64,000 nucleotides of DNA, taken from Ostreococcus lucimarinus. Lineage: Eukaryota. Below, piece by piece: positions 2,737 to 40,707 of the stretch. The DNA lies in NCBI GenBank assembly GCA_000092065.1, contig CP000584.1. The stretch is one strand, 5' to 3'. The notes below the pieces were generated by a model. It saw nothing but the letters and a program-made list of their open reading frames with translations, was not told the origin of the DNA and ran no database searches. Every line of letters starts with the position of its first letter. The stretch's first letter is position 1. A program made the translations under genes and the position numbers.

Positions 2737-5745
<3,009 letters not shown>

Positions 5746-7115: not shown

Positions 7116-7664
7116 ATGGCCACGGTGGCCATCGCGCCCGACGTCCAGACGCACCCCACGGCGACGGCGGTGACGCTGGCGCTGAAGATGGCGCCGATCG
7201 CGACGTACTTGGCGTGCGAACTCGTCAATTCGGACGGTTTCGTCGCAAATTTCGTGGCGTGCGTCCTCGCGCTCGCGGTCGATTTTTGGTGGTGCAAGAA
7301 CGTCAGCGGACGCTTGCTCGTCGGTCTGCGGTATTGGAACGAGATAGACGACGCCGGGGAGTCGCGGTGGCGGTTCGAGGCGAGGGACGACGAGGGCATG
7401 GCGCGCGTGAGCGCGAACGAGAAGCGACTCTTCTGGACGACGCTGTACGGAGGCGCCATCGCGTGGGCCGCGCTGCTCGTCGGCGCCATCGCGTCGTTCG
7501 AATTGAACTACGCGTTGATCCCGTTGGTGGCGCTGTGCTTGGCGATGACGAATTTGGTGGGGTACTTTAAGTGTTCGAAGGACGCGCAGAGTCAGTTGAA
7601 TGGATTCGCGCGAAGGCAAGTCGCGAGCGCGTTGTTTTCGGGCGTCGGGTCCTCGGCCTCGTAG
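7116..7664 (+). CDS. TVP23: Golgi apparatus membrane protein TVP23 (FAM18/DUF846 family)
   Basis: 182-aa ORF with four predicted TM segments and the family motif DFWWCKNVSGRLLVGLRYWNEIDDAGESRWRFE, then later LVGYFKCSK. It is divergent from the CCA1-like gene, separated by about 300 bp. Confidence 0.8.
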   Translation: MATVAIAPDVQTHPTATAVTLALKMAPIATYLACELVNSDGFVANFVACVLALAVDFWWCKNVSGRLLVGLRYWNEIDDAGESRWRFEARDDEGMARVSANEKRLFWTTLYGGAIAWAALLVGAIASFELNYALIPLVALCLAMTNLVGYFKCSKDAQSQLNGFARRQVASALFSGVGSSAS

Positions 7665-7869: not shown

Positions 7870-10800
7870 TTGCGGTTATTCCGGAGTCGACGCGCGATGT
7901 CGCGCGCCGCGGGCGCGTCCGCGCCGTCCACGGCGAGCTCGCACGTTGCGTTCAGTGGCTGGCTGACCAAGCGCGGAGGAAAGGATTTATACGGTAAAGC
8001 CACGTGGCGCCTGCGATATTTCGTGCTTCGACGACCGAGACACGCGAAAGAGCGGGCGTGCGTGCGGTACTTCGCCAACGAACCCGCGGACGGGGCGGAG
8101 AGCGCGGCGAAAGGGGAGTTTGCGATTAACGGACAGAGTGCGGTGCGAATCTTGGATTCCGATGAAACGTTCGCGGAATTCGGGCTCAAAGCGCACAAGT
8201 ATGCCGGGAAGCGGATGTTTGCGTTTCAGACGATGCCGGGGCAGGGCGGGAAGAGCGCGGCGCTTGTCGTGGAGGCGGAGGATCTGACGACGATGCAACG
8301 GTGGGTGACGGCGATTAGCGAAGCAATCACTCGGGCAAGAAGTTTGGAGAATGAAGCGGCGAGTAAAACCGGTTTGGCGGTGTTAAACGCGCAAGTCGAT
8401 GGCGATGAAAACGATGTTTTACGAGGGAAGAACTTTCGGGGGACGCTTGAATTGGCGGGACTTTGCGGACCGCTCGGCGACGGCGCGCTCCCCGTGCATT
8501 TGGACGCGTGCTGGGAGAATTTGACCTTTGTTGATCTCATGGCGGATTCGTGCTTGAACGAAAAGCTCGGCAAGATGCGACGATCGAAATACGTGCGCGA
8601 GACGTTGACGAGCTTGGTCGACAGTGCGATCACGATTGGACGGTGCTTGGGGGCGTCGCCGATTCCCATGAGCGGGCCAGAGTCTAACGCGATGAGCACG
8701 ATTCGTCGAGCTCTTGATGATATGCTCGCACTCGCTCGCTTGATGCCAGTCGGTACGAAAGACAATAATATTTTTGTTTCGTTTCTTGCGGCGCTGTTGG
8801 ATCGCGTTCGTCAGCTTCGACCAGGTGAACTGATCATGTGTCCGGGAGGTTGGGCAAACGAAGAAGGCGGCGCTGCGGTGATTTACACCATTCACCGTCT
8901 CCCCGCACACTTCGTTGTGAGCTTGACCAACTGCGGCGACGGTGTGGAGTTTCATCCTATTCAAGCTGATCCTGCGAAAGATGCTTTCAAGTATATTCAT
9001 ACCATTCAGTTGATGGACGTTCCGATAGCCGTCGCGATGGACTCCTCGGCGTGGGCGCTGCTGTTCCGCCCGTTGATTTTCCCTCAAGACGCCGCCAGTG
9101 CGAAAGACATGATTTACAACAAGCTCCTTCCCATGATGAATGGTCGTCCTCTACTCGCTTCGGTCACCCCCAAACCACTGCGCACTGTTAAGTTTGCGAA
9201 ACAGCCAAGAGGACGCGATTCAAGCGGCGTCTTTACCGCACTCGAAGCCGCTCGATGCGGTCTCGCTAGTTTAGGTTGCCCGCCGAATCGTGCAGATGCG
9301 TTGGTGAACCTTGGAGTAAGGTTTGTCATGCTTGAAGAGGCCAAGCGCGATTTGGAGCGCGTGAACATGATCGGTGCAAGCGCTCTGGTTACGTTGCAAG
9401 CGGCGTGTAGAACGGTTGCGGAATACGCGGCGAATCATGCCGACTTGTGCGTCGAGGCAGAAGAAGCAAGTAATGGTGAGCCACCGAAGAAAACGACAAT
9501 GCCCCGAGAAACGCTGGCGCAGATGTTGCGCTCAGTTGAATCGGTGATTCTGCGGACAAAGGCCCTGCACGGCGCAACGACACTACCGCCGGCATTGCAA
9601 CCGCCGAAGGTACCGATCACGGCGTGCGCTTTACCACTCTTCAACCGCCTCGCCAGCGAAGGTAACGTAGATTCGTTAGCAGGTGCAGCTAGAACGCCAC
9701 CGATTTTGAGGCCAGTCGAACTCACATTGGTGCCGGATGCCGTGGCGAAGCTAGAAGACGTACCCAAGGCGTTGAGAAACGCGCTGCATTGCTGCACGAT
9801 TCTCGCAAACCAAGCGGATTTGATGCCAAACTCTTACGCCTTGCGCGTGAGCTTGCTCGTGCACTTGTTTGTACATGTCCTGCCGGCACCTTTACCTATT
9901 ACGCACCCTGAGAGACATACGAAATGCTTTTGGGCATCGGTGAACACCACCTATGAGCTCCAAGCTGAAATTTTGAGGAGTCTAAATTTGTTGCTGCGGC
10001 ACTTTTCCGCCGCAGCGCTTTCAATCAGCGTCACGCAGACTTTCGATGCAGCGCGTTTACTCACCATTGCCAATTTCGCGGCAATCGCGGATGCGACGCT
10101 TCGTCTTAAAGTAGCAGACGCGCCGTCTGCGTTCATGCAACACTACGCCGGATACGCCGAAGGTCCGATTTCGGCGTTTGGTTTTGAAATCGGTCCGTTC
10201 GCCGTTGAGGCAGAGTACTTGCGTTTCCACTGCCCAGAACGTACCATTAGGTTGACTCAGACGCTGGATTACTTTCATAGCTTGAAGAAAACGATCGAGA
10301 GCGATCACATGATTTACCGTTGGGAGAATGAAGCCGCGGGTGGGATGTCGTTTGGCGTCGGCGAGGCGAGACTCATCGATCAAGTCTGTTTGCAAATGGG
10401 TATCGGCCGAGAAGATCCAGAGTACTTGGCAAAGTATCACAGTGGCGAGTTGCGTGAGTTTGCCGATAGCTATCCGGAAATGAGTGCACTTCGAGATATC
10501 ATTTTCATGTTCAAGTTACTCATGGCGCCGACGTCAGACGACCTTCCAGAGCTCGCACGTTGGAAGCCCATCGACGCTGCGTTGGATTGGAGTGTGGCGC
10601 GACGCGAAAGTTCGCGTAGTTACTTTGACTTGGAAGTGCGGGCTTTCGGTCGTGCTTTGACTATTCAGCCTTGGAAAGAACCAGAGGTAGAACAGGGCAC
10701 GTCTAAGACAGGTTGGCGTAACATTTTTGGCGGTGGATTTTTCGCAAGAATGCAAGATCGCCGGCCGCGATGCCCACCTTCGGGCGCCAATCCCAGCAAC

Positions 10801-13800
10801 CTGGCTGGTCAGCGAGTCGACACCGAAGAAGACGTCCTTCATTTGCGCGAGGTACCAACGTTTGACAATCTGCTTAAACCAAGCGAGTCGGAGCTGCTCC
10901 TGACTTACTTGACCGCTCCCATGATTCGTTTGCCGCTCGTGATGAAGCTGTTCGCAGAACCGACACGCGTGCGCGGGTTGACGCACAACGACATTCAGAG
11001 TGTTTTAGACGCTGTGATTTTCGAGCCCGGACCTTGGGCGCCTCCAGAGCCGACGACAATACCAAAGGAAATACCTGCAACAACGCGAGCGCATATGGCA
11101 ACGCCGACTGGTTTACTCGTGCACGAGCTCATCAACTGTCCGGCGCCTCTCGCGGATAGCGCCGAAGAGCTGTTGGCGTTGAGTTTGGAATTAGATACCG
11201 GGCGTCACGACGCACCGAGCGCACAAGGGGTGTTGTTCGCGTGTAGGATGCTCACTAGACTGCTGGCGTTCGTAGATAGCATCCTCAAGGCAAATTCGCT
11301 CGATTCGGAATTCACGACATCCACTGGCTTGACGCGAGGGCTGGATTGTTCGTCGGCGTCTTTGTCGGCACTCGCGGACGTCAAAGTCCGCATCACCAAA
11401 GCACTCAAGGAGAGATGTCGACCAGTGATTCAGCGATGGTTACGTCACGCGGTGAAGAAAAATGCAATTCGTGCGGCTTGCGCACTTCACGCACATCTCG
11501 CGTACATGTACTACTGGACGCCTCGAGTAGAAATAGACAAACAAGCGGCCCTCATTATTCTCACGGCACAGCAGTACATTTTCGTGAACTACCACTTCAC
11601 AGATACACCGGATGGAAGCGAGACGAGCAATAGAAAGTTGGCGGACACGGGGAGTATGAGCGGTGTCGATACTGGTCTCGGCTTTGCGCCGACGGAGATT
11701 TTTGACCTGTTCCAGCGAAAGCGACGGAGCATTCTGGAATGGGCGGCGGCGAATCCGCAAGACGCTAATAGCATTCTGGAGAACGTCGTCGAGACGCTCA
11801 CTACTAAGAAGACAGATGGCTCGAACTCACCAACGAACGTGTTGGATGCAGAGGACACGTTTAGCGCGAAGCGTGCGTGGCGCCGTGCACCAGGTGCGGG
11901 TGGTGCTGGTAGATTTGTCAGCTACGTGTCGGATATCCCATTCGCAGATCTCGTCGAGAGGGACAAACGGGCCGCGGCGCTTTTACTTCAAAACCATCGT
12001 CACTACGGAGAGTGGCTTCTGGAGACGACGCTGCAGTCTTTCGATATGGAAATTAATGCTCAGCTCGGCGAATTCACCGTTCGAAAGAACCGATTGCGTC
12101 ATTTAGAAGCTAGTATTCGTGAAATGCCGGACTTCGTCGCAGCGCTGGGACCAGTGCTCGCCAAGCGCGGGATTGAGCCGTCGCACTTCCAAGAACTCAG
12201 CAAAGGGGACGAGCTCGTGATCGGCGATTCGGGGGATGTCGTTCACTGTGCGGAGGTAAAGAATACGGAGCATCGTACATGGATGCGTCTCGTGGGTCTC
12301 AATCATGATATTCAGTTGTGGGATCGAGATCCAAGACCGCCGCTGAACGAATTTACGCGACCGCTCGTTAGCCGCGTGCAGACAAAGTCACAAGCATTAG
12401 AACTTTTGGGTCGTGCAGTCGGTGCTGGTGGTCTCGCAAGCTGCGAGCAATGGATTCTTTCTATTCTTGATCCCATCATCAAGGGTCCGGGCGCGGGATA
12501 TCTGCACGGTGTCGAGCTCTTTTTACCCAAAAATACAATTCACGGGTCCATAGCTCGCCTCGCCGGCACTGGCGCGCCTGAGAATGCGGTGAGCGAACCT
12601 TGGAGTTTTTGGAAGCGAAAGACTGTGAGCACATCCAATGACGATCAACGTCGCGTGGAAGAGGCCAAGCAGCTCTTGACGGAGGTAATGATCGTTAGAG
12701 AACCTCCTCTGGTACAAGTTTTCCGCGTGGAATCGTACGGTCGACGTTGGCGACGTTCGTTAGTGTTCGCATCAAATGCTTCTTTCTGCCTCGCAGATAT
12801 CGATCCCGATGGTCAACCAATTCTAAAGGATGAAAATGAACGATTTTTACTATCTGCCGCGCGTCTAGGCTCGCGAGCTCCGAGTTTAGTCGTCACGAGA
12901 CTCTTGAATGGCTTCATCGGACGCGAGTCGTTTGTTCCGGCGCGACATTTGCGTGGCTTACTGCCCCAGGTTTTGCTCGAAGAGTACCAGTTTTGGCGAA
13001 GCGAAACTACTGGTGATTTATTTGGTACCGCGAATGAAAGTGCTTCGCACCCGAATACTATGATCCATGTGCGATTGGGCTATGAAAACAATTTACTGCT
13101 CGATGGAGGATTTCCCGTAGATACTCGCGCCATCGTGCGAAGACTTCCAACAATGGGTGCTGATGGGATTTCGCGTCTCCCCCCGCTAGATGGTTCGTAC
13201 GTCGATGGTCAGCTTACATTAGTAGATCTTCTGTATGCGCCCTCGCTGGCGGGTGAACAAGGGCGCGCTCTACTCGCGCTCACCAAGTCTCTCGCCGCCG
13301 TCGAAGGATTGGCACATTCGCTTGTCTGGTCATCAAAACCTGGGCTCGAAAGTGGGCCGAATGAGCACATCGCGGGTGTGTGCGATATATCGCGTGTTGA
13401 ACTTCCAAGACTTGGTGTTTCGTTCAATGCGATAGAGTCAGGTGGTGCTATTCGCTTGGAGTGTGAGGAACACGCCGGGTTGTTTTTAGCGCAAAGACGC
13501 AACGCCGCGCTCGAGATTCTGCTTACCGGGCTGCCGCATGCGCTTCTTCTCGAAGCTCGAGACGGTGCACTGTCTGTGCTATTATCGGCGAGCGCAATAC
13601 CTCGACCCGCGGCGACTGCGTCGGACTTCGCGCATGGAGCGAGCACGGGACTCGGCTCAGATCTCATAATCGATCGTTGGAGCACGCAGTGGGTGGAAAA
13701 CATAGGCAGCACAAAGCACTATGTGTATCCTGTGCATCCTTCGCATGCGACAATCAGTGCAACGTCGATGCCAGCCGCTCTATATCTCGCAATCCTGCGA

Positions 13801-16800
13801 TTCATAGGTCGCGATTATCTCGCCGTGCTCAGACTTGCGGAACTCTGTGTGTCAGAAGCGGTGCCCACGCCAGAGGAAGCGCAGCTGTGGGACGCGCTCG
13901 CGCATGCGTGCTCTTTGGATCCAAGCCCCGACGCCACAGCAGTTCGCGTGAAGCTTATGTTGATGGTAAAAGACACTCCAATCGAACCCCGACTCGCGCT
14001 GAAGTGGCCACCCGTGGCGGATGTACTGAATTACGTCAATTGCTGGTCGTACATCAGCGCAAATTGTCGCCTCACTGGACATGAAGAGCTCACCGCGATC
14101 GAAAGCTTGGTTACGGAGACCATGGCAAAGAAGAAAACTTCCAAGTTCAAGGCTGTCATTAGTTTCATGTTCCCCGGCTCCAAGAAGGCGAGCGCGGCGG
14201 ATATGAGTATGGATCCAACGAAGACCCCAGAGTTGTTGAATCGTGCGGCGTACTTGAGGCAGCTCGTGGGCGGAATCGCGCGCATGAGCGCCGGATCTAC
14301 GCCGACGAGTTCTGGATTCCCTCTAGTATATCCAGTGGCGCCAGAATATGACAGATTCGATACCGTGGACGACCTGACTTGCTTGTCCGATAAGGTAACG
14401 GGTGAAGGACCTCTGGGCAAACTCGCGGGTCTGATTCAAACGTACAATCGTCCAGATGACGTGAGCGTCAACGGTAGTCAGGCGCTCGCTTTGATCGGCC
14501 AATGGATCGACAAGGAAAAGTTCAATCTCGACGGTAACTTGGGATTCCCGTTATTCTTTGAGCTCATGACTGGAACCCTGCCGCTGCGCGTTCTTCCTGG
14601 TGATTCTCCCCATCGTTGGGGTTGCGTTCTCCTTCGTTTTGTGCCAAACGAGCAATCGATGAAGTGCGGTACACTCATGAGTACGTTACGCGTACTTGCT
14701 TCCAGCCCCAACATCGCGCAGGATTGTCCTAAAATGGAAGAACAGAGCGTTGGTCAACGGTTTAGTTCAATGTTTACTTCGGACGGTGCGATAGGTATGT
14801 TACTTCGCAAAGTACGACCGTACCTGCAACAGCGAAAAGAGGAATTCCCCGGTCGCATATCTTGGACGGGCAAGGAGTACTTGACGCAGAGCATATACGA
14901 GTCTGACGTGCAGACTTGGGCGCGTACGATTGCTACTGGCGGCAGATGGGCGCTGACTCGATTCATGAATACATCGTGCTCTGAGCGCGAGTTCTCTCTC
15001 AAGTCGAGCGATAGCGCTGAGATGGCTGGTGGTACCACGTGGAGTGGGAAAACACTCCAGCACGTGGATCTGGAGATGCTCGTGAAGCGCCCACTCGGTG
15101 TCCTTGATTTGAACAAGTATGTCGTTCCTCTTACGGAAGATAGAGCCGATGAACTCGCGGAATCCGTCGCGCTCGGCGGTGTCGGTGGTTTGCCGTTTGA
15201 CGTCAGCCAGCATCCAGCGGCTACGACGTCCGTCGCTAGACAGATGCTCAATCGTTTGCGCGCCGACGTAACCGGAGCATCAGACAAAGCTAAGGCGCGA
15301 CGCATGAATGGTGATTTTAGTGCGGTGACGTTGAAGGGTTTCTCCCCCAGTGATACTGCCGCGATCGCATCTGAAGCGGGTGCAGGCCGCGCCGGTCATG
15401 CCGCGGGGACCGCCCGTGCGGTTCTACGTGAATTGCTAGAAGGAATTCGTCGTGTCACCGCCGACGATAAGGCGGCCGCATCTGAGGCTATGTCAGCTGC
15501 ACTTGCTACGGCGAATGGTTTACGAAAAGACGTCGAGTCTGGGACAAAGATGTTACGTCTCGGATTGCAGCGCCGCGCAGGGGCTTGGGCCGAGGTGACA
15601 TTTGAAGATTTGGTTGAGTGTTTGACGTGCGAAGGCGGCGAACACATTTTATCCCGTTTGTCTCCAGATGTGACCGCAAAGCAAATAGTTGATGCGTTAT
15701 ATTTGACGTCGCAAGCGTTGCTGCTCACGCTTCGCGCGACGCTAGCCGCGAAAGCGGCGGGTATGGTGGCTGACACGCTCATAGCGTTGACGAATTGTGC
15801 AAAGACAGCGGCTATTGACGGTATTGATTCTGTCGATCGAGACTTGAGGCTCAAAGCTCTGGCAATCGCGGAGTTGATTTCAGTGGAACGACATTACTTC
15901 CAGGCGGACACTGCGAATCCATTCAGCAAGGCAACGCGCTTGATCTTTGATCCTCGTTTGCTAGTCTACGAGTACAGTCAGAGCATCGTGCTGCGCAAGC
16001 GCCAAGTCGAGCTGACTCGAGATTTCGTTGACACGGCTGAGAACGGTGGCGGCCAGTGCGCACAGATGCTCATGGGTGAAGGTAAAACAACTGTGGTGTG
16101 TCCATTACTGGGCTTCGTTCTCGCCAAGAGCAGCTCTGTCGTCGTCCAAGTAGTCCCTCACGCACTTCTCGAGTTTTCGCGAAGCACTTTGCGCAAGGCG
16201 TACTCAGGAGTCATCAGACGTTCGGTCGTTACCCTCGAGTTCAACCGATACACATCCCTCGCCGATGGCTCAATACTCGCAACTTTAAGGAAAGCGAAAG
16301 AGAATCGAGCCATCGTCATCTCGTCACCGACAAGCATCAAGTCTCTCGCGCTTAAATTTTTGGAAGTCTGCCACCTGCTCGATCAATCGTACATCGCTGA
16401 CCGTGATGGCAAGACCGGTGGTATGCTCGCACAAGGAGCTGATTTAGTCAGTCGCGTTTTTGGTGGCGCTAAAAGTCGGAGTGAACGTGTTGCTGAGGCT
16501 GGTGGGTTAACCATCGAAGAAATAAACACATTGCGCTCAGAGGCAACGGCGGCCGCGGAAATTTTTGAAATTTTCCAAACTGGCACGCTTATTTTGGACG
16601 AAGTCGACTTGATTCTTCATCCTTTGAAATCCGAACTCAACTGGCCAATGGGTCGACGTATTCCGCTCGACTTCAGCAAGGCTGCGTCAGGCGACGGTTT
16701 GAGATGGAAGCTTCCATATTACATCCTTGACGCCATCTTCGCAGTCACGTACGGGCGCTCGACGGCTTCGGAGGCTGAAGGTTCGCAAGAGGCAATCGAT

Positions 16801-19800
16801 CTGCTCGACGGTATACGCGCCGCGGTTCGAACGGCGATCGAATCGAAACAATTGCAGACATCACCGCATCTAGCGTTGCTCGATAAGTCTTGGTATCAAG
16901 ATATCTTGCGTCCGCTCTTGGCGCAGTGGACGAGCATTTGGCTGCGTGCTCATGGCGCGTTGCGTGGCATGTCAGAGGCACTCATTATGGCGTATCTTCT
17001 GCGGGGACCGGGCGCGGCTGAAGCAAAAGCGCAGCTGAATCGTGAATGTGAAGACGAGGCTGTGAAGATGACCAACCTCGCGCGAGATTGGCTTTGCTCT
17101 CTGTTGCCTCACATGCTCGCGAAGATTAATCGCGTAACGTTTGGTTTGTTACAGCCCGCGGACGTATCGCTACTCGAAGAAGTGACGGGATCGCGTCTGC
17201 CGAAAACCCGTAGACTTTTGGCAGTTCCTTTCGTGGGTAAGGATATTCCGAGTCGAACGAATGAGTTCTCACATCCAGATGTCGTTCTCGGGTTGACAAT
17301 TTGCGCATACCGCCTCGAGGGTTTGCGCCGTGCCGACTTCAAGCAAATGCTTCGAATCTTAATGGAAGAGTACGATAACGAGGCCGGTCCTCCTCAGAAG
17401 CGACCGGCTGCTCGTAGGTGGGCGGACTGGGTGCGTACGACTGGGAAGCGAGTGCGAGGTGAAGCGCGCGCTGAGGCAGCGCTCGCCGCAAGACGACGCG
17501 GCGTTTCGCAGCAAACCGGAACTACAAATGTCGGGGATACCCGCGGATTGGCGTGGCTCGAAGACGACACCGCAGGTCTGCAAGACGACGAGGTTTGGCC
17601 TTTGCAGCTTATCGATCTCAGAGATCACGATCAGGTTGAAGAAATCTACCAACTTCTGCGAAGGACGCCGCCGTGTATCGAGTATTATCTCGACGAATTT
17701 GTCTTCCCTGAAACGGCGCAGCATCAAGATTTGAAACTGAGCGCCACTGGCCAAGAACTCGGTGGTGATGTGTTGTTCCCCAACCGACTCGGTTTTAGCG
17801 GTACCCCGAGCGACTTACTGCCGCTCGAGCTCGGTGCTCCGCGATACGAATCCGGCTCTGACGCCAAGATGCTGGCATACTTGACGGATCCGGAAACCGC
17901 AGCGACGATGCCTTTGGACGTTGATTGGAACGTGCAGACTCTCCTCACCCGTATTGCGACGGTAGACCCACCGATACGTGCGCTCATCGATACGGGTGCG
18001 CTTGTCACGGGCATGTCCAACCTCGATGTCTCGAGATTCTTACTCGAGAAGGGTCTGAAATGGGCTGAAGGATGTGTGTTCCTCGACGAAAATGATCGAC
18101 AGATGATTCTCATGCGCAAAGGATGGGAAGTCATTCCTCTTCAACGCGTCGCCGCAATGCCTTTGACGAAACGATTTACGTTCTATGATCAAGTTCATAC
18201 GACCGGTATGGACATCAAACAGGCCGCGGCGTCGCAGGCAGCCATCACCCTCGGTAAAGACATGTGTCTTCGCGATTATGCGCAGGGTGCTTGGCGCATG
18301 CGCGGTTTGGGCAAGGGTCAGACGCTAAAGGTGATTGTGATTCCGGAGGTTGCGAGACTCATCTCGCACGAAGTTGCCAAAGGAGGTGGACAGATCCCAT
18401 CGACGCGCGATGCTGAACTCGCGACAATGTCGGCCGAAGCGGTCGAGAAGCGTAAGTTACGAGACATCACGGCTTGGCTCGTCGTGAACAGTATGCGAAG
18501 TGAGAATATTCAAGCCGGTTTGCTCGCAGAGCAACGCGCGGCGAATATCTGGAGAAAGCATTCATACAGGAAGCTTGTGTCATCGCCCACTGCACCGGGA
18601 ACACCAAAGGCGGAGGGTATGATTCACGCGTGCCTTGACGTCTTCCGAGATCGCGTGTCGTACGTCGTGGCGAATGTCATTCCTCAAAGTGTATCGCCTT
18701 CAGAGAAGTTAGCGAGGAGCGTACAGCAGTTCGGACATTTGCTCGACGATAGTCCTCGCGCAAAAGAGCAATTACGATTGATCGTGAACGACGTGAAGCA
18801 AATGGAGGAGACGACGAATGCGGCGTTGAAGCGGATTCGCGCTGGCACACACATGGCTCCAGATGCGGCGGAGTCCGGTGATCAAGGTTTGGCTGGTGGT
18901 TTGGAGCACGCCTTGGACCTCGAGCAAGTTCAAGAGAATGAGGAAGAACAAGAAAATGAGCAAGAACAAGAGCAAGAGAAGGAAGAAGAACGTGAGGAAG
19001 AAATCATCGAGGAAGCCCCAGATGGCTTGAAGTACGTGCGCGACGACGAGAAACAGCCGTCGTGGAGTTACGAGTCTTTGTGCAAAAGTCCAAGCTCAAT
19101 GGCTCAAGGTTTCTACCCACTCAAAACGTTCAAGATACATAAAGGTGTCGGCAAGACTACAGCACCTTTGGATTTCCCGGAGTATCTATATCTATCGAAA
19201 AATTACTTCCGTGAAGGATGGGCGCTCAACGGCCATCGACGCTTGAAGAATCTCACCGTCGTGCTGGACTGGGTACCGGATAGCAGCGCTTTATCGACCG
19301 ACGCCGGTGGTAGCGTCGCGGCGGGTACGTTCACAGCAGACCAGGAGTCAGCGCTACGAACTGCGTTCGATATGTTTGACTCTTCCGGAAACGGTCGTTT
19401 GACAGAGTCCGACCTCCGAGAGGTTTTGCGTGAGATCGACGCTTGCGTAGAAGACGATGAGCTTCGTCTTCAACAGTTGGCGCGTGAGGTTGCTGCAGAA
19501 TCACGCACGTTCAATACCGGGGGTAAGTCATCTGGGACGTCTTTCGAGGAGTTAAAGCGCGTCCTTCGTTCGAAGAACATTTACTCATTGCAACGTGGGC
19601 GATACTACGTCGCGTTGTCTCTGGCTGAAGCCGAGTCGCTGCGCGTTGTCATGCATCTCACGAAGGGTAGTAAAGCGAGTGACGGCAAACTGATTCCATC
19701 CAAACTCACCGAAGCTGCGTTGCGAATCGGTGGCGGTACGCTCATCGATAACACGTCGAGATTTACGCCCGCACAGGTGTTTCAAGGTGCGACGGCCGAG

Positions 19801-21672
19801 CAATGTTTCAGATTTCTCGACAGTCAGCTGGATTTCGAAGACCGCGAAGTTTCATTGCTGCTTCGTGCGCTCCAAGGGTCGTCGTGCGATAAGCGAGCGC
19901 AATTTTTCGTGTCTGTTCGGGCGTGCAGGCGGCGCGCTAAAATTCCATGGGCGTCGTCGCCACTCGCCAAGGTTCTCACTACGGTGGATGAATTCCATTT
20001 ACTCGCGTCGAGAGCACTCGTCGCTCGTGTACGTACGGCGCTCAAGTCCAAACGTATGCGTCTTTTAGATGCGTTCCGGGCTTTTGACGGAGATAACATT
20101 GGAAAGCTTACGTATGAAGCGTTATATGGTGGCTTGTCGTGGCTCGGCCTTTCGCTCACGTCGGCTCAAATGCTCGAGCTGGCTGCGCGTGTGGACAAGA
20201 CGCACGACGGCTACATCAGTCGAGAAGAGTTCGAGGAAGCTTTCGGGCCAGATGACGATTGGGTTTTAGATGGCGATTTCCACGAACAGGTTCCCATACC
20301 GACTCTAGCTCCCTCGGTGCCAGTGCCGACGTCTCAGCTTGCGCAAGTGAGCTTGATGGATATTCTCGGCGACGTTGGAAGCGACGAGGGGTCGAAATCG
20401 TCGAGTAAGGATCTTGTCGCTCCTGAGATACAGTCGCCATCGAAGGTAATGAGCACGGAAAATTTGAGCATCGATGACGGTACAGGACTTGGTGACTGGG
20501 GCGCGCTCGGAATGGCGGCGACTTTACCAGTTGTTGCGAAGAAGAACCCGCCTCTCGCCAAGGAACAGCCCAAGCCAAGCGCGAACGATCCGTTTGGTTT
20601 GGGTCCTCCAGCCGGCGCGTCGTCAACCGCGTTCGATGATTGGTTGTCTGGCGGTTCGGGCAACATGCTTGGCGGTGGCTCGTTGAACGATCCCCTCGGC
20701 ACTCAAGCAAACCCAAATGCCGCAGACGGCTGGGAAGGCAACGACATGATTCAGCTCGACACCTCGACTGGTACCATCGCCGCGCCGGCGCGAGATAAAA
20801 TCCAGGCAAGAGCTCTTGTGGATCCGGCAAAGGAAGCTGAAGAGCGCAGGCACCGCCAAGTCGATTCCAAGTTGACGAGCTCGGCTCTTAATGGGTTCCA
20901 AGTAGCCGTCGTGCACCAAAAATCGTTCCAAAAAGTTTGGACGAGCGACGGCACTGGAAGCCGTTCGACTGGAAGCGTGTGGCAAGCAAACTTGGGTAAA
21001 TCGACGCTGAAGAAAAAGACTGAGCGCATTTCGCTCGGTCACTACGCTTCGCCACACTTTTCGCAACCGAAACCTGCGCCATTTGCTGTCGAAGTGACCG
21101 ACATAAATGCGTTCGCGCTCACTGGTTCGAACTATATGCCACGAGTGTTGGATCGCTTGTTCCCACATCCGAGCCGGTTCAGACAGGTTTGGGGACAAGA
21201 ATGGAAAGGAACGGCGGTGTATGCGTGGACTCCCGTGCCGCCACCTGGATGCGTAGCCATTGGTATGGTGTTGACGTCTATCCCGCAGGCACCGGACGTG
21301 TCCACCATGCGATGCATTCCAGAGAAATGGGCAATAAAGCCAACGATGGAACCCCAACTCGTGTGGACGAATGAAGGCAGTGGTGGTCGTCCGGCGAGTA
21401 TTTGGTTGGTGAACTCGCTCGGTTTGTTGTACGTGAATGTCGGGCACAATCCTCCTCCGGCGAGAGATGTTTGGGACATCAAACGAGGTCAGCTCACCGC
21501 GGACCAGGTGCTTCAGTATCAGGCGTCGGCGCCGCAAACGTCCTACGGCGGAACAGGAATTTCGAGCGACAGCTTTGACGGACCGACGTACAACCCTCCG
21601 CGGCCTCCACCCCCGAGCGGCAACAGCGGTGGATCAAACGCTTTGCCCGCGGGATTAGGATCGCTGATTTAG
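7870..21672 (+). CDS. Giant single-exon multidomain protein (about 4,590 aa from ATG 7897). Domains in order: PH domain, long alpha-rich region, P-loop NTPase module resembling DUF3638/DUF3645, acidic E/Q tract, two EF-hands, Vps62/DUF946-like C-terminal domain.
   Basis: Uninterrupted 13.8 kb ORF. Codon 1 in the track is TTG; the first ATG is at 7897 (MSRAAG...). PH-like N-terminus: HVAFSGWLTKRGGKDLYGKATWRLRYFVLRR. P-loop: CAQMLMGEGKTTVVCPLLGFVLA (around 16068-16097), with a downstream ILDEVDLILHPLKSELNWP block. Acidic tract EEQENEQEQEQEKEEEREEE (around 18925-19012). EF-hand loops DSSGNGRLTESD and DGDNIGKLTYEA/DKTHDGYISREE. C-terminal VWTSDG...SIWLVNSLGLLYV...WTPVPPPGCVAIGMVLT resembles the plant Vps62/DUF946 motif (SIWRP.PP.GY..LG). 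Confidence 0.8.
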   Translation: MRLFRSRRAMSRAAGASAPSTASSHVAFSGWLTKRGGKDLYGKATWRLRYFVLRRPRHAKERACVRYFANEPADGAESAAKGEFAINGQSAVRILDSDETFAEFGLKAHKYAGKRMFAFQTMPGQGGKSAALVVEAEDLTTMQRWVTAISEAITRARSLENEAASKTGLAVLNAQVDGDENDVLRGKNFRGTLELAGLCGPLGDGALPVHLDACWENLTFVDLMADSCLNEKLGKMRRSKYVRETLTSLVDSAITIGRCLGASPIPMSGPESNAMSTIRRALDDMLALARLMPVGTKDNNIFVSFLAALLDRVRQLRPGELIMCPGGWANEEGGAAVIYTIHRLPAHFVVSLTNCGDGVEFHPIQADPAKDAFKYIHTIQLMDVPIAVAMDSSAWALLFRPLIFPQDAASAKDMIYNKLLPMMNGRPLLASVTPKPLRTVKFAKQPRGRDSSGVFTALEAARCGLASLGCPPNRADALVNLGVRFVMLEEAKRDLERVNMIGASALVTLQAACRTVAEYAANHADLCVEAEEASNGEPPKKTTMPRETLAQMLRSVESVILRTKALHGATTLPPALQPPKVPITACALPLFNRLASEGNVDSLAGAARTPPILRPVELTLVPDAVAKLEDVPKALRNALHCCTILANQADLMPNSYALRVSLLVHLFVHVLPAPLPITHPERHTKCFWASVNTTYELQAEILRSLNLLLRHFSAAALSISVTQTFDAARLLTIANFAAIADATLRLKVADAPSAFMQHYAGYAEGPISAFGFEIGPFAVEAEYLRFHCPERTIRLTQTLDYFHSLKKTIESDHMIYRWENEAAGGMSFGVGEARLIDQVCLQMGIGREDPEYLAKYHSGELREFADSYPEMSALRDIIFMFKLLMAPTSDDLPELARWKPIDAALDWSVARRESSRSYFDLEVRAFGRALTIQPWKEPEVEQGTSKTGWRNIFGGGFFARMQDRRPRCPPSGANPSNLAGQRVDTEEDVLHLREVPTFDNLLKPSESELLLTYLTAPMIRLPLVMKLFAEPTRVRGLTHNDIQSVLDAVIFEPGPWAPPEPTTIPKEIPATTRAHMATPTGLLVHELINCPAPLADSAEELLALSLELDTGRHDAPSAQGVLFACRMLTRLLAFVDSILKANSLDSEFTTSTGLTRGLDCSSASLSALADVKVRITKALKERCRPVIQRWLRHAVKKNAIRAACALHAHLAYMYYWTPRVEIDKQAALIILTAQQYIFVNYHFTDTPDGSETSNRKLADTGSMSGVDTGLGFAPTEIFDLFQRKRRSILEWAAANPQDANSILENVVETLTTKKTDGSNSPTNVLDAEDTFSAKRAWRRAPGAGGAGRFVSYVSDIPFADLVERDKRAAALLLQNHRHYGEWLLETTLQSFDMEINAQLGEFTVRKNRLRHLEASIREMPDFVAALGPVLAKRGIEPSHFQELSKGDELVIGDSGDVVHCAEVKNTEHRTWMRLVGLNHDIQLWDRDPRPPLNEFTRPLVSRVQTKSQALELLGRAVGAGGLASCEQWILSILDPIIKGPGAGYLHGVELFLPKNTIHGSIARLAGTGAPENAVSEPWSFWKRKTVSTSNDDQRRVEEAKQLLTEVMIVREPPLVQVFRVESYGRRWRRSLVFASNASFCLADIDPDGQPILKDENERFLLSAARLGSRAPSLVVTRLLNGFIGRESFVPARHLRGLLPQVLLEEYQFWRSETTGDLFGTANESASHPNTMIHVRLGYENNLLLDGGFPVDTRAIVRRLPTMGADGISRLPPLDGSYVDGQLTLVDLLYAPSLAGEQGRALLALTKSLAAVEGLAHSLVWSSKPGLESGPNEHIAGVCDISRVELPRLGVSFNAIESGGAIRLECEEHAGLFLAQRRNAALEILLTGLPHALLLEARDGALSVLLSASAIPRPAATASDFAHGASTGLGSDLIIDRWSTQWVENIGSTKHYVYPVHPSHATISATSMPAALYLAILRFIGRDYLAVLRLAELCVSEAVPTPEEAQLWDALAHACSLDPSPDATAVRVKLMLMVKDTPIEPRLALKWPPVADVLNYVNCWSYISANCRLTGHEELTAIESLVTETMAKKKTSKFKAVISFMFPGSKKASAADMSMDPTKTPELLNRAAYLRQLVGGIARMSAGSTPTSSGFPLVYPVAPEYDRFDTVDDLTCLSDKVTGEGPLGKLAGLIQTYNRPDDVSVNGSQALALIGQWIDKEKFNLDGNLGFPLFFELMTGTLPLRVLPGDSPHRWGCVLLRFVPNEQSMKCGTLMSTLRVLASSPNIAQDCPKMEEQSVGQRFSSMFTSDGAIGMLLRKVRPYLQQRKEEFPGRISWTGKEYLTQSIYESDVQTWARTIATGGRWALTRFMNTSCSEREFSLKSSDSAEMAGGTTWSGKTLQHVDLEMLVKRPLGVLDLNKYVVPLTEDRADELAESVALGGVGGLPFDVSQHPAATTSVARQMLNRLRADVTGASDKAKARRMNGDFSAVTLKGFSPSDTAAIASEAGAGRAGHAAGTARAVLRELLEGIRRVTADDKAAASEAMSAALATANGLRKDVESGTKMLRLGLQRRAGAWAEVTFEDLVECLTCEGGEHILSRLSPDVTAKQIVDALYLTSQALLLTLRATLAAKAAGMVADTLIALTNCAKTAAIDGIDSVDRDLRLKALAIAELISVERHYFQADTANPFSKATRLIFDPRLLVYEYSQSIVLRKRQVELTRDFVDTAENGGGQCAQMLMGEGKTTVVCPLLGFVLAKSSSVVVQVVPHALLEFSRSTLRKAYSGVIRRSVVTLEFNRYTSLADGSILATLRKAKENRAIVISSPTSIKSLALKFLEVCHLLDQSYIADRDGKTGGMLAQGADLVSRVFGGAKSRSERVAEAGGLTIEEINTLRSEATAAAEIFEIFQTGTLILDEVDLILHPLKSELNWPMGRRIPLDFSKAASGDGLRWKLPYYILDAIFAVTYGRSTASEAEGSQEAIDLLDGIRAAVRTAIESKQLQTSPHLALLDKSWYQDILRPLLAQWTSIWLRAHGALRGMSEALIMAYLLRGPGAAEAKAQLNRECEDEAVKMTNLARDWLCSLLPHMLAKINRVTFGLLQPADVSLLEEVTGSRLPKTRRLLAVPFVGKDIPSRTNEFSHPDVVLGLTICAYRLEGLRRADFKQMLRILMEEYDNEAGPPQKRPAARRWADWVRTTGKRVRGEARAEAALAARRRGVSQQTGTTNVGDTRGLAWLEDDTAGLQDDEVWPLQLIDLRDHDQVEEIYQLLRRTPPCIEYYLDEFVFPETAQHQDLKLSATGQELGGDVLFPNRLGFSGTPSDLLPLELGAPRYESGSDAKMLAYLTDPETAATMPLDVDWNVQTLLTRIATVDPPIRALIDTGALVTGMSNLDVSRFLLEKGLKWAEGCVFLDENDRQMILMRKGWEVIPLQRVAAMPLTKRFTFYDQVHTTGMDIKQAAASQAAITLGKDMCLRDYAQGAWRMRGLGKGQTLKVIVIPEVARLISHEVAKGGGQIPSTRDAELATMSAEAVEKRKLRDITAWLVVNSMRSENIQAGLLAEQRAANIWRKHSYRKLVSSPTAPGTPKAEGMIHACLDVFRDRVSYVVANVIPQSVSPSEKLARSVQQFGHLLDDSPRAKEQLRLIVNDVKQMEETTNAALKRIRAGTHMAPDAAESGDQGLAGGLEHALDLEQVQENEEEQENEQEQEQEKEEEREEEIIEEAPDGLKYVRDDEKQPSWSYESLCKSPSSMAQGFYPLKTFKIHKGVGKTTAPLDFPEYLYLSKNYFREGWALNGHRRLKNLTVVLDWVPDSSALSTDAGGSVAAGTFTADQESALRTAFDMFDSSGNGRLTESDLREVLREIDACVEDDELRLQQLAREVAAESRTFNTGGKSSGTSFEELKRVLRSKNIYSLQRGRYYVALSLAEAESLRVVMHLTKGSKASDGKLIPSKLTEAALRIGGGTLIDNTSRFTPAQVFQGATAEQCFRFLDSQLDFEDREVSLLLRALQGSSCDKRAQFFVSVRACRRRAKIPWASSPLAKVLTTVDEFHLLASRALVARVRTALKSKRMRLLDAFRAFDGDNIGKLTYEALYGGLSWLGLSLTSAQMLELAARVDKTHDGYISREEFEEAFGPDDDWVLDGDFHEQVPIPTLAPSVPVPTSQLAQVSLMDILGDVGSDEGSKSSSKDLVAPEIQSPSKVMSTENLSIDDGTGLGDWGALGMAATLPVVAKKNPPLAKEQPKPSANDPFGLGPPAGASSTAFDDWLSGGSGNMLGGGSLNDPLGTQANPNAADGWEGNDMIQLDTSTGTIAAPARDKIQARALVDPAKEAEERRHRQVDSKLTSSALNGFQVAVVHQKSFQKVWTSDGTGSRSTGSVWQANLGKSTLKKKTERISLGHYASPHFSQPKPAPFAVEVTDINAFALTGSNYMPRVLDRLFPHPSRFRQVWGQEWKGTAVYAWTPVPPPGCVAIGMVLTSIPQAPDVSTMRCIPEKWAIKPTMEPQLVWTNEGSGGRPASIWLVNSLGLLYVNVGHNPPPARDVWDIKRGQLTADQVLQYQASAPQTSYGGTGISSDSFDGPTYNPPRPPPPSGNSGGSNALPAGLGSLI
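18925..19012 (+). repeat. Coding low-complexity (GAA/CAA/GAG)n tract encoding an E/Q-rich acidic stretch inside the giant ORF
   Basis: caagagaatgaggaagaacaagaaaatgagcaagaacaagagcaagagaaggaagaagaacgtgaggaagaa. Confidence 0.7.
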
Positions 21673-21766: not shown

Positions 21767-24352
21767 TTAGTTGTGGAACATCGGCGAAAGTGGCGCGCGG
21801 TCTCGGCTTCGGCCAGCCGACGAGCGCCTGGGAGATGGCTCGTACGCCTTCGAGCCTCTCATAGGATTCGGCGAATATTGCGCGAATTGCGCCTTGGCTT
21901 CGGCGATGCCCTCACTCAAATCGTGGCTCGCTCGAAGGATTTCGTCCTGCGCCGCCATCTCGCGCGCAGCTGCGCTGTGGAACGTCGTCCCACCAACGGC
22001 TGCCTTCGCGGCGGCTTGCGTTGCAGGAGAGTTACCGCTCGATGCCTCGAGCTGCGAGTGGATCGATGCAAACTTGGACTGTATGTGCTCCATTTGCTCG
22101 AGCTCGCTCTCAAGCTTGTGACGACGAGACTCGAGCGCGCTTCGGACGCTCTTGACGTCGAAGACGGAGTCGAGACTAATCTCAAACGCGTCTTCCATCT
22201 CGTTGCGCAAAAAACTATTGAAGTCGTTCAGCAGAGGCATAAGGAAGAAGCAGTTGAACTTGAGCTCGACCGACTGAACGATGTGTGCGCGAATACCGGA
22301 GAAGATTTGACGAACCAACATGTCAACAATATCCACCGTGACCGACTTCATCGTTCTGTTCCAGAGCGTGTTTTCAACCAAATCCGTGAGCTTGCAGTTC
22401 TTCAACTCCTTATCCGACATCACGAGCTCGCCACCGGAGCGGCGCTTTTCGTCTTTCGCGTCATGTTCGCCTTCATGCGGCGCCAAGACGTTTCGTAGAC
22501 CAGCCTTGTTTCCAGAGTGCAACGACCAAGTGACGAACTGAGTCGTAGACTTGAGGTCTTCGTGGCACTTTTCTTGGCATTCCTTGACTCGGTCGTCCAC
22601 GAATCGAGCGAAAGTGCCGCCAATCTTCTTCAAGAAGACTTCGTGCCCGTTCAAAATTCGTCCCTCCTTTTGCAAAAGGTACATGGCCACAGGCAAAGTT
22701 CGTCGCGCGATGTGAGACAGACGGAAGCCGAGTTGGTGCACGAAGGGCTCAAACGTTTCTCGAGCCCGAGCGATGGCAATGACGCACGCAGTGCGCGTGT
22801 AATTGACACCGTTGTGGATTTCATCAACACCGCACGAGTTGACGATATCTTCTCGGCTCACCGGCGGGCACTCCACGGCGTTGACGATTAAGCGGAACTC
22901 TTCGAGGGCTCGATGGTATTGCGCGCCACCGAAGAGCCGCATATCGGCGTTTGGCACGGGTTGCTGCGGCATGCAAGGTCGACCGTCCGCGTTCACGAAC
23001 GCGCCGCCACGAATGTGCTCGTGCGCGAGAGACTCGCCAAAGATGCGCGGCGGCGCGGCGAGCGTACCTCGGACAATCTCCGGAATCTTTTCCAAAAAGT
23101 GCTGATAAAAGGCGCGACCCTTCTCCTTGAGGTGATCTTGGTTCAAGTCCGCCAACTCTTGCACGGTTTCAGAGAGCTTGCTCGTGGCGATGCGATGCTC
23201 GCGTTCGAGCACGGGAACAATCGTGGGAACGTTCTCCAAGTATCGCTGCTGCAACAATCGCTCGAGGAAAAATCGCAGTTGGCTCACGCCGATGCGGCCG
23301 CGCTCGTGCGAAGACAGGTGACGATCCAAGCGGCGCTCGAGTTCGGCGATATCGTGTTGCTCGCGCTCGAGAACGGCCTCCCGATAGTGATCGTTCGAGC
23401 GATACTTCGAATCTCGTGCGAGTCCAACGCGGCCAGAGGGCACGGAGGAAAAGAACGGACCACCACCCAAGACGGTCGGCTCGAGTAGACGCGCCGGCGG
23501 GTGCAAGAACATTTCGACGTCTTGCGAGTGAGAAAATTGCGGGATTCGCGTGTCGAACTTGGTGCTCACCACGACGGTACGTCGCAGCTCGGGATCGGCT
23601 TCGAGAACCAATCGCCGAGTGGTGGCGTTGGACCAATCTGAGCTGTCTTCCAGGCACAAGATGATGTAGTCTCGCTGGTGCATCTTTTGCTTGACTAAAT
23701 CCTCCACCAAGCGCGCAGACTGTTGCAAACCAGAAAACTTTCGGCCCGGCGCGGCGGAGATCAAACCGGGGGTATCGATGATGGTGAGGTTCGGGCAATA
23801 CTTATACTCGATCTTCACGACGATGTCCTTCGCCCAAAACCCGTTCTCGTTTTCCAATCGTCTGTTTTCGCCTTCAATGTGCGCCTGCAACTCGGGAAGC
23901 GAGAGCTCGTCCTCGCGCCCAAGATTGTCGTCCTTCATCAAAAAGCACCTCGGCTCCACGGCGGAAGGGTTGTACTTCATGTTGATCGCGATTGGACGCC
24001 TCGTCTTCGTTCCACCACCGACGTGGTTGAACTGGAACCCCATCAACGCCTCCACGAGCGCCGACTTTCCATCCGTCTGGTGTCCGACGACGAGAATCGC
24101 CGGCGAATCAAACGGCTTATCAAACTCTTGCGCCATCGTGTGCAACTGCGAATACGCCTCGTACAACCGCTCGTTCGCCTTGTTAAAGAACCGCTTGGGA
24201 GATGCCCGTCCATCGTCTTGACTCGAATCCACCGCTTGTCCGTGCGCCCAATACGCCGGCTTCGCCGCCGTCCCCGGCGCCGCGCGTCGCTCCGTCTCCC
24301 GCTCGTACCTCGCACCCCCGTACGAAGATTCGCGCGCCTGCGTGTGAACCAC
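21767..24352 (-). CDS. ARC5: Dynamin-related protein 5B (ARC5, plastid-division dynamin). The N-terminus is unresolved.
   Basis: 861-aa ORF. Strong similarity across the GTPase domain and beyond to Arabidopsis ARC5 as recalled: LYEAYSQLHTMAQEFDKPFDSPAILVVGHQTDGKSALVEALMGFQFNHVGGGTKTRRPI, then CPNLTIIDTPGLI, ILCLEDSSDWSNATTRRLV, VVSTKFDTRIPQF, MRLFGGAQYHRALEEFR and VFLKK. Codon 1 of the ORF is GTG. The first in-frame ATG (..HTMAQEF) falls inside the conserved N-terminal block, so either a non-AUG start or an upstream 5' exon (acceptor ..CACGCAG|GCG at about 24337) is implied. Confidence 0.85.
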   Translation of the reverse strand: MVHTQARESSYGGARYERETERRAAPGTAAKPAYWAHGQAVDSSQDDGRASPKRFFNKANERLYEAYSQLHTMAQEFDKPFDSPAILVVGHQTDGKSALVEALMGFQFNHVGGGTKTRRPIAINMKYNPSAVEPRCFLMKDDNLGREDELSLPELQAHIEGENRRLENENGFWAKDIVVKIEYKYCPNLTIIDTPGLISAAPGRKFSGLQQSARLVEDLVKQKMHQRDYIILCLEDSSDWSNATTRRLVLEADPELRRTVVVSTKFDTRIPQFSHSQDVEMFLHPPARLLEPTVLGGGPFFSSVPSGRVGLARDSKYRSNDHYREAVLEREQHDIAELERRLDRHLSSHERGRIGVSQLRFFLERLLQQRYLENVPTIVPVLEREHRIATSKLSETVQELADLNQDHLKEKGRAFYQHFLEKIPEIVRGTLAAPPRIFGESLAHEHIRGGAFVNADGRPCMPQQPVPNADMRLFGGAQYHRALEEFRLIVNAVECPPVSREDIVNSCGVDEIHNGVNYTRTACVIAIARARETFEPFVHQLGFRLSHIARRTLPVAMYLLQKEGRILNGHEVFLKKIGGTFARFVDDRVKECQEKCHEDLKSTTQFVTWSLHSGNKAGLRNVLAPHEGEHDAKDEKRRSGGELVMSDKELKNCKLTDLVENTLWNRTMKSVTVDIVDMLVRQIFSGIRAHIVQSVELKFNCFFLMPLLNDFNSFLRNEMEDAFEISLDSVFDVKSVRSALESRRHKLESELEQMEHIQSKFASIHSQLEASSGNSPATQAAAKAAVGGTTFHSAAAREMAAQDEILRASHDLSEGIAEAKAQFAQYSPNPMRGSKAYEPSPRRSSAGRSRDRAPLSPMFHN

Positions 24353-40665: not shown

Positions 40666-40707
40666 GAAGTGTCGCGAAGTTCGTTCGGCGTCGCGACAAC
40701 GCGACGC

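Follow-up and report, generated by a model that had tools for sequence, protein, structure and literature searches.

A giant single-exon gene

The subject of this analysis is a 13.8 kb gene in a 64,000-nucleotide stretch of Ostreococcus lucimarinus contig CP000584.1 (assembly GCA_000092065.1; the whole stretch is referred to below as the window). We find that the gene encodes a giant protein built around a predicted ATPase of the superfamily 2 (SF2) helicase/translocase type. On the plus strand, a single open reading frame (ORF) runs without interruption from 7870 to 21672 and comprises 4,600 codons when counted from an upstream TTG, as in the ORF listing. Given the base composition of the stretch, the probability of so many stop-free codons arising by chance is about 1e-85. 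The first ATG lies at nt 7897 and the stop codon at 21670-21672, and the complete single-exon coding sequence (7897..21672, +) specifies 4,591 aa plus stop.

The product matches the O. lucimarinus CCE9901 protein XP_001417362.1 (ABO95655.1, UniProt A4RWN7) exactly. Because the two are identical letter for letter, the public annotation has the same single-exon model, and the claim of an earlier note, made from the DNA alone, that one uninterrupted ORF of about 4,590 codons is present, stands. NCBI calls the product "predicted protein" and UniRef "ubiquitinyl hydrolase 1". A4RWN7 stands at the head of a cluster, formed at 90% identity, that contains 238 environmental sequences, including 4,591-aa and 4,506-aa versions. 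The gene has a GC content of 0.547, and its GC content at third codon positions (GC3) is 0.575, compared with 0.60-0.76 in ten neighbouring ORFs (mostly 0.67-0.76). Low expression or weak codon bias could be the cause.

Domains were called by a Pfam scan of the 4,591-aa protein with curated gathering cut-offs. All five domain types that had been named in the earlier note (PH, DUF3638, DUF3645, EF-hand and Vps62) exceed these cut-offs. Against NCBIfam, there was one sub-threshold chance match and nothing else.

A predicted SF2-type ATPase module

The best conserved part of the protein is an ATPase module encoded at 15844..18576 (+, aa 2650-3560), in which two RecA-like lobes can be recognized. 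DUF3638 (aa 2686-2825; 84 bits, cut-off 31) represents the first lobe. Reading the sequence, we find GEGKTT as motif I or Walker A (16075..16092, aa 2727-2732) and DEVD as motif II or Walker B (16597..16608, aa 2901-2904), at the places where the earlier note had located them. Between motifs II and III lies an insertion of about 385 aa (16609..17766), which contains the DUF3645 motif (17203-17298, aa 3103-3134; 51 bits, cut-off 25). The order DUF3638 then DUF3645, with both above their gathering scores, places the protein in the PF12340/PF12359 family, as had been proposed. The insertion is followed by a motif III-like GFSGTP (17791..17808, aa 3299-3304) and, at 18199..18306, by the second-lobe motifs TTGMDI (motif V-like, aa 3435-3440) and QGAWRMRG (aa 3463-3470), the latter resembling the motif VI arginine finger. 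All these elements are on the plus strand.

The G.GKTT columns show no variation across 10 giant homologs aligned, and D, E and D of DEVD are likewise fixed; depending on the alignment, the Walker A and B columns are invariant in 10-25 homologs. Invariance also extends to all six columns of GFSGTP, to TTGMDI and to the Q, R and R columns of QGAWRMRG. Few stretches of the family are as invariant as the DUF3645 motif (AVPFVGKDxPSxxSEFxHPDVxIGLTxLAY), yet it sits in the least confident part of the AlphaFold2 (AF2) model (predicted local distance difference test score, pLDDT, 29-46). This segment may need a partner or ligand for folding.

In the AF2 model of aa 2602-3534, two parallel-strand lobes are seen (mean pLDDT 62; predicted template modelling score, pTM, 0.53), the first lobe having a pLDDT of about 80 and much of the insertion falling below 50. 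The SF2 motifs were assigned by eye and from the strand order of this model. Walker A and Walker B, two tandem RecA-like lobes, motif III and a motif VI arginine finger together point to an SF2 helicase/translocase-type ATPase core, with motifs I, II, III and VI intact and invariant in the family. The "NTPase of unknown chemistry" of the earlier note can thus be replaced by a predicted fold and enzyme class. Among 25 homologs, 11 have a sub-threshold match to the Pfam model ResIII (best E 0.0017) and one to DEAD.

The giant protein differs in several respects from SF2 enzymes that carry accessory insertions, such as DinG/XPD, Snf2/Rad54, RIG-I and SecA. Curated helicase Pfam models remain below threshold for it, its insertion of about 385 aa with DUF3645 has no known counterpart, and its motor is embedded in 4,591 aa together with Ca2+-binding and membrane-type modules.

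Acidic tract, EF-hands and the C-terminal domain

Downstream of the ATPase, a Glu/Gln acidic tract (18931..19014, +, aa 3679-3706) confirms an element that had been noticed before. Its position is kept across the family, and it contains Glu columns that are invariant in all giant homologs aligned. We take the tract to be a functional element and not incidental low complexity.

Two EF-hand regions follow on the plus strand. The first (19354..19434, aa 3820-3846) is matched by Pfam EF-hand_1 and EF-hand_6, and its loop DSSGNGRLTESD (aa 3828-3839, nt 19378-19413) is near-canonical, with Asp at position 12. The second is an EF-hand pair (20056..20244, aa 4054-4116; EF-hand_7 67.9 bits, cut-off 30), which has a degenerate loop DGDNIGKLTYEA (aa 4064-4075) and a canonical loop DKTHDGYISREE (aa 4100-4111, nt 20194-20229). 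EF-hand_1 scores 39.8 bits, Ca2+ binding is predicted from the loop residues, and the region matches centrin and calmodulin chains in PDB. Of the two canonical EF-hand Ca2+ loops described previously, DKTHDGYISREE deserves the term, DSSGNGRLTESD comes close to it, and a third, degenerate loop has to be added.

The C-terminal domain (20914..21486, +, about aa 4340-4530) is labelled as a partial "Vps62" by Pfam. The match to PF06101 (aa 4335-4479; 26.8 bits, cut-off 22.1) is real in terms of score, and it covers positions 29-160 of the 541 positions of the model. We built a profile from ten family members and searched it against PDB. The sole match was 6fbm_A (GNIP1Aa residues 382-471, E 2.6e-8), and these residues fall in the GNIP1Aa C-terminal domain, where a beta-tripod has been described. 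Using phmmer, the domain was found in at least 10 distant members of the family, including a homolog on the metagenome contig L001 (see below) and diplonemid and apicomplexan proteins. Beta-tripod repeats are marked by a D-x-G-S/T-G-x3-D signature (PMC8624791), to which the protein has only approximate counterparts, SDGTGSRST and NEGSGGRPA. "Vps62" matches of this type have been reported to represent beta-tripods, the name Vps62 being derived from a spurious alignment (PMC7613979, PMC10683392). We therefore interpret the region as a predicted beta-tripod (IPR009291) target-recognition domain. The Pfam match that the earlier note had relied on is retained; the Vps62 identity is not.

Full-length similarity to a vacuolar sorting protein of the yeast Vps62 type is lacking, as no more than positions 29-160 of 541 are matched. 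Since the match is to a beta-tripod, it carries no implication of trafficking.

Two known systems offer a comparison for this part of the protein. The GNIP1Aa beta-tripod (6fbm) shares W..PVPP.G..A.G and G-S/T-G type motifs with the C-terminus of the giant, but GNIP1Aa belongs to the secreted, pore-forming MACPF toxins, and a MACPF domain is not present in the giant. Plant VPS13M1 and VPS13M2 are giant cytosolic proteins that likewise combine PH with a beta-tripod ("Vps62"). In these plant proteins, beta-tripods together with PH and C2 domains have been proposed to mediate localization through lipid or protein contacts (PMC7613979, PMC10683392). However, VPS13M1/M2 are bridge-like lipid transfer proteins, while the giant described here has an ATPase as its core instead of a lipid-transfer groove; a Pfam match to Chorein, VPS13 or ATG2 was not found in it.

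N-terminal head, conserved N-terminal region and middle region

An N-terminal PH domain (7951..8328, +, aa 19-144; PF00169 34.3 bits, cut-off 25.1) is present as previously claimed, and it is also encoded at the locus of a sister species (L002). In the family, this position is occupied by a variable head module, with SH3 in the L001 homolog and FYVE or UBA/RanBP zinc finger in others. Among the members that we examined, PH is confined to Ostreococcus-type sequences.

A conserved and mostly helical N-terminal region (8707..11796, +, aa 271-1300) is modelled with good confidence (AF2 pLDDT 85.4, pTM 0.69). Foldseek found no PDB structure for this model at E<=1e-3, and a sequence profile of aa 271-1300 gave no meaningful match in PDB. 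The conserved middle region (11794..15816, +, aa 1300-2640) has no recognizable domain. It shows colinear BLASTP matches of 23-30% identity to 13 giant homologs and L001; there was no Pfam match, and a profile search against PDB found nothing. The description of this half of the protein as an alpha-rich scaffold of 2,500 residues is correct as far as the helical content is concerned, but a featureless spacer it is not, considering the 1,860 family representatives retrieved with its N-terminal part (see below) and the pLDDT of 85 for aa 271-1300.

Within the N-terminal region, an alpha/beta domain (8794..9306, +, about aa 300-470) is defined by the family motifs PGGW .. (G)HA-strand .. NTGxGxxYHP .. 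FWF .. LYExLLPFL. Its fold may be nearest that of Legionella AnkD (7ew8) and AnkH (6mca), a match that was not reproduced by Foldseek. The middle domain of AnkD/AnkH is cysteine-protease-like, and the "(G)HA-strand" and "NTG" motifs of the family domain are comparable to theirs. In domains of the AnkH/AnkD type, a His-Asp/Asn-Cys triad resides in the motifs rGHa, D/NRg and GNCSWANV (PMC6712400). The candidate triad columns read Ala326, Asn345 and Thr447 in Ostreococcus. Among 45 representatives, His is found in 18, Asn in 35 and Cys in 14 at these columns, with the full His-Asn-Cys combination in 6. Unlike AnkD/AnkH, the domain of the giant has no ankyrin repeats, and the triad His and Cys are missing in Ostreococcus and most relatives. 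No link to AnkD/AnkH was found by sequence, either with a profile of aa 281-470 against PDB or with Pfam searches of 21 copies of the domain; the latter returned only scattered chance matches, and no peptidase, at E<=10. As a lead and not a finding, the domain may be a decayed protease fold.

Two other candidates were dropped. Cys345 in "SLTNCGDG" had been considered as a catalytic cysteine, but relatives read NTGxG at this place. A herpesvirus-tegument-like (VTD) deubiquitinase domain had been suspected, and PMC9741609 gives no link to the family; according to this paper, VTDs outside viruses belong mainly to Helitrons, and P-loop, NTPase or DUF domains go unmentioned in it.

Distribution and conservation of the family

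An exhaustive HMMER search (phmmer) with aa 152-1351 as the query retrieved 1,860 cluster representatives at E<=1e-3, of which 976 have E<=1e-10. Full-length proteins of 3,900-5,800 aa are frequent among them. Members include a Cryptosporidium serpentis protein of 5,234 aa annotated as "EF hand family protein" (KAL7066785.1), two Babesia duncani proteins (for example XP_067804707.1, 4,420 aa), a Diplonema papillatum protein of 4,058 aa (KAJ9467248.1), complete ORFs from transcriptome assemblies of Entosiphon sulcatum and Flectonema neradi, and partial sequences from a diatom and Chrysoparadoxa.

On the metagenome contig L001 (GC 0.49), five consecutive plus-strand ORFs separated by short gaps are colinear with aa 286-4529. 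Compared with the Ostreococcus protein by BLASTP, the ATPase is 42% identical, the C-terminal part 38% and the N-terminal parts 23-28%. The L001 homolog has SH3 at its start and EF-hands and "Vps62" at its end. The sister-species locus L002 is colinear over aa 7-4573 with 73-85% identity. Frame changes are the sole interruptions and may stem from errors of assembly.

Using Pfam at E<=1e-3 on 11 giants, DUF3638 was detected in all and DUF3645 in 10; FYVE, UBA, RanBP zinc finger and laminin-G were each detected in one. Like the Ostreococcus protein, other DUF3638/DUF3645 giants are of similar size and have conserved N-terminal and middle regions, the ATPase, the acidic tract, EF-hands and a beta-tripod-like C-terminus. 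They differ in their heads (SH3, FYVE, UBA/RanBP zinc finger or laminin-G versus PH), and some have additional insertions or C-terminal additions that are absent from the Ostreococcus design. As judged from these alignments, the core of scaffold, ATPase, acidic tract, EF-hand and beta-tripod is old and colinear in distant eukaryotes, with the head alone varying. The view that the domain combination is peculiar to the Ostreococcus genome has to be abandoned, as the core is colinear in diatom-type contigs, apicomplexans, diplonemids and euglenids. A further correction to the earlier note is that public databases already list the protein, with these domains annotated.

By eye, thioredoxin-like and ankyrin-like stretches were noticed as further modules in the members P0262 and P0253. 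In P0253, these are a thioredoxin-like stretch with "WCGPC" and ankyrin-like repeats near the C-terminus. Accessory-domain shuffling in the family appears to be extensive.

Related ATPases were also seen outside eukaryotic sequences. A Chlamydiae metagenome-assembled genome (MAG; JABDEI010000011.1, L003, 3..8675) has an ORF of at least 2,890 aa with a DUF3638-type ATPase (Pfam E 9.7e-26) and GAGKTT, DEVD and SGT motifs. This ORF extends beyond the start of the locus and has only the ATPase core in common with the Ostreococcus protein, which suggests transfer between a eukaryote and an intracellular bacterium, or an effector role. In a giant-virus MAG (IMGVR_UViG_GVMAG-M-3300022916-4_000001, L004, 99..7526), a 2,475-aa ORF without Pfam match contains IMGAGKTTV, DEIDDLLNP, GFTGT and QGCYRMR and reaches 62 bits with the ATPase profile of the family. 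By its motifs, it looks like a divergent DUF3638-like motor.

Gene neighbourhood

Upstream of the giant gene, the window contains a RuvBL/TIP49 ATPase gene (within 3184-5745, +), a Myb/REVEILLE-like gene (5857-7095, -) and a DUF846/TVP23-like gene of the Golgi membrane protein type (7116-7664, +; Pfam E 4.6e-47), the end of which is 232 nt from the ATG of the giant gene. Downstream, a dynamin-family gene (21767-24352, -) is convergent with it. The order TIP49, Myb/RVE, DUF846, giant and dynamin-like is kept on L002, a 772-kb contig of the sister species.

In the 853-aa ORF at 3184-5745 (+), the TIP49/RuvBL match begins only at residue 420. The true start of the TIP49 gene is probably far downstream of the ORF start, and the upstream extension may merely be stop-poor, GC-rich sequence. 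Elsewhere in the window, the ORF at 29749-32229 (+) combines an NHL repeat with the two domains that make up a copper type II ascorbate-dependent monooxygenase (PHM/DBH-like); enzymes of this type are chiefly found in animals. A TELO2-like gene (ARM repeats and telomere length regulation domain) is located at 37819-41289 (-), a gene for an AP2-domain transcription factor at 52403-53857 (+), and a gene for a Ser/Thr-Tyr-type protein kinase, which has a long extension at its N-terminus, at 55838-58909 (-).

Proposed function and alternatives

In the literature searched, including by accession, we found no functional studies of DUF3638/DUF3645 proteins, in line with the earlier statement that the family is without an assigned function. 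Their mechanism was still called undefined in a 2025 paper. We propose that the gene is the Ostreococcus ortholog of an old, widespread family of cytosolic proteins of roughly 0.5 MDa, and that its product would act as a Ca2+-regulated, membrane-recruited SF2 motor. We give this reading a little less than even odds (a probability of roughly 0.45).

According to this proposal, PH and beta-tripod would bring the giant protein to a membrane or to a ligand bound there; the heads seen in the family (PH, SH3, FYVE, UBA, RanBP zinc finger) speak for a connection with membranes and ubiquitin. Ca2+ bound to the EF-hands, which flank a conserved linker, would cause a conformational change that gates the SF2 motor, and the motor, using ATP, would remodel the polymer that the N-terminal platform holds, or translocate along it. 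Protein and nucleic acid are both possible as the polymeric substrate. The AnkD/AnkH-like alpha/beta domain, which lacks the protease-type residues in Ostreococcus, would most likely serve as a binding module and not as an enzyme. Of the previous suggestion of a Ca2+- and lipid-regulated mechanochemical or trafficking ATPase, the mechanochemical part is still reasonable, and the Vps62 match no longer speaks for trafficking.

Several observations weigh against the proposal. None of the curated helicase models (DEAD, ResIII, SNF2, Helicase_C, SecA_DEAD) matches the Ostreococcus protein at E<=1, and no solved structure was matched by a sequence profile of the ATPase module searched against PDB. 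The structural model of the module is moderately confident only, and the DUF3645 insertion is poorly modelled. One of the three EF loops is degenerate. EF-hands were detected in 5 and Vps62 in 3 of the 11 giants (at the same Pfam threshold as above), and Ca2+ control may thus not be universal in the family. Lipid binding by PH and beta-tripod is an assumption. Finally, SF2 enzymes mostly act on nucleic acids, which would weaken a membrane-centred view.

In one alternative, the protein is a nucleic-acid helicase or translocase (for RNA/DNA surveillance, repair or antiviral functions), the platform and Ca2+ modules being regulatory and PH and beta-tripod serving secondary localization. That ResIII is the only helicase Pfam model with recurrent weak matches would fit, as would the DUF3638-type ATPases in the Chlamydiae and giant-virus MAGs, which are conflict-prone settings. 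However, neither the protein nor 11 giant relatives have a Pfam domain for nucleic-acid binding (zinc-finger DNA/RNA, OB, KH, RRM or others), and the accessory modules found across the family (PH, SH3, FYVE, UBA, RanBP zinc finger), like beta-tripod and EF-hand, are of membrane, ubiquitin or protein-interaction types, leaving this alternative on the doubtful side. It is also conceivable that the protein is a structural scaffold or tether with a vestigial ATPase, a giant adaptor that bridges membranes or the cytoskeleton. About 80% of the residues are outside the ATPase, two surfaces could be bridged by PH and beta-tripod, which sit at opposite ends (a bridging role has been proposed for accessory domains of VPS13M), and one enzyme-like domain is already degenerate. 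We nevertheless consider a scaffold role very unlikely, and argue for retained catalysis, because the ATPase is the best conserved part (its identity to L001 is 42%, that of the N-terminal parts 23-28%) and the residues of the catalytic motifs are invariant in all giants aligned.

The automatic UniProt/UniRef name "ubiquitinyl hydrolase 1" would make the protein a deubiquitinase. The name is attached not only to A4RWN7, but also to a diatom homolog and two Babesia homologs; some relatives have UBA or a RanBP-type zinc finger, and 6 of the 45 representatives have His-Asn-Cys at the candidate columns. Yet no OTU, UCH, USP, Josephin, MINDY, C48 or other peptidase model matches the Ostreococcus protein at E<=1, and peptidases are equally missing from the 11 giant relatives (at 1e-3) and, at E<=10, from the 21 alpha/beta domain copies. 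No protease in PDB is matched by profiles of aa 271-1300, 281-470 or 1300-2640, the fold match to AnkD/AnkH was not confirmed by Foldseek, the triad columns read Ala-Asn-Thr in Ostreococcus, and Cys345 is not conserved. From sequence comparison, we conclude that the Ostreococcus protein does not belong to the cysteine-protease deubiquitinases, and regard the database name as highly improbable. More improbable still, to the point of being negligible, is an annotation or assembly artefact, with adjacent genes or pseudogene remnants in frame by accident. The GC3, which is below that of the neighbours, could be counted in its favour, but it would have to overcome the chance of about 1e-85 for the ORF, the 238 near-identical environmental sequences with their 4,591-aa and 4,506-aa versions, and the order and content, which are colinear in L001, in L002 and in over a dozen giants of 3,900-5,800 aa, among them complete ORFs in transcriptome assemblies of Entosiphon, Flectonema and others. 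The giant gene is no artefact.

Going beyond the proposal of a Ca2+-regulated, membrane-recruited SF2 motor for the Ostreococcus protein, the DUF3638/DUF3645 giants as a whole could be an unrecognized class of eukaryotic mechanoenzymes, probably predating the divergence of the major groups. They would then share a Ca2+-gated SF2 motor whose substrate is a protein or is associated with membranes, and is not nucleic acid, exchangeable heads for lipid or ubiquitin binding that position the motor together with a beta-tripod, and a decayed CE-clan-type protease domain now used for recognition of ubiquitin, ubiquitin-like proteins (Ubl) or peptides. As a complete scenario, we hold this to be unlikely.

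Significance

Membership in the DUF3638/DUF3645 family, which is catalogued by Pfam, and the protein with its domain annotations were already known from public databases. New in our analysis are the placement of the ATPase in SF2, the interpretation of the C-terminal domain as a beta-tripod, the rejection of the deubiquitinase name for this protein, and the recognition that the design of about 4,600 aa is common to distant eukaryotes. Two misleading labels are removed, Vps62, which implies trafficking, and ubiquitinyl hydrolase 1, which is the name of an enzyme.

The Ostreococcus genome is among the smallest and most compact of free-living eukaryotes. It nonetheless keeps a 13.8 kb gene that is conserved over its full length in stramenopile-type contigs, apicomplexans, diplonemids and euglenids. 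A half-megadalton ATPase that is so widely conserved and has no assigned function represents a real gap in cell biology. With our reading, what had been two domains of unknown function becomes an enzyme class open to testing, a predicted SF2 motor with defined and mutable catalytic residues, and the analysis identifies Ostreococcus tauri and apicomplexans as tractable organisms.

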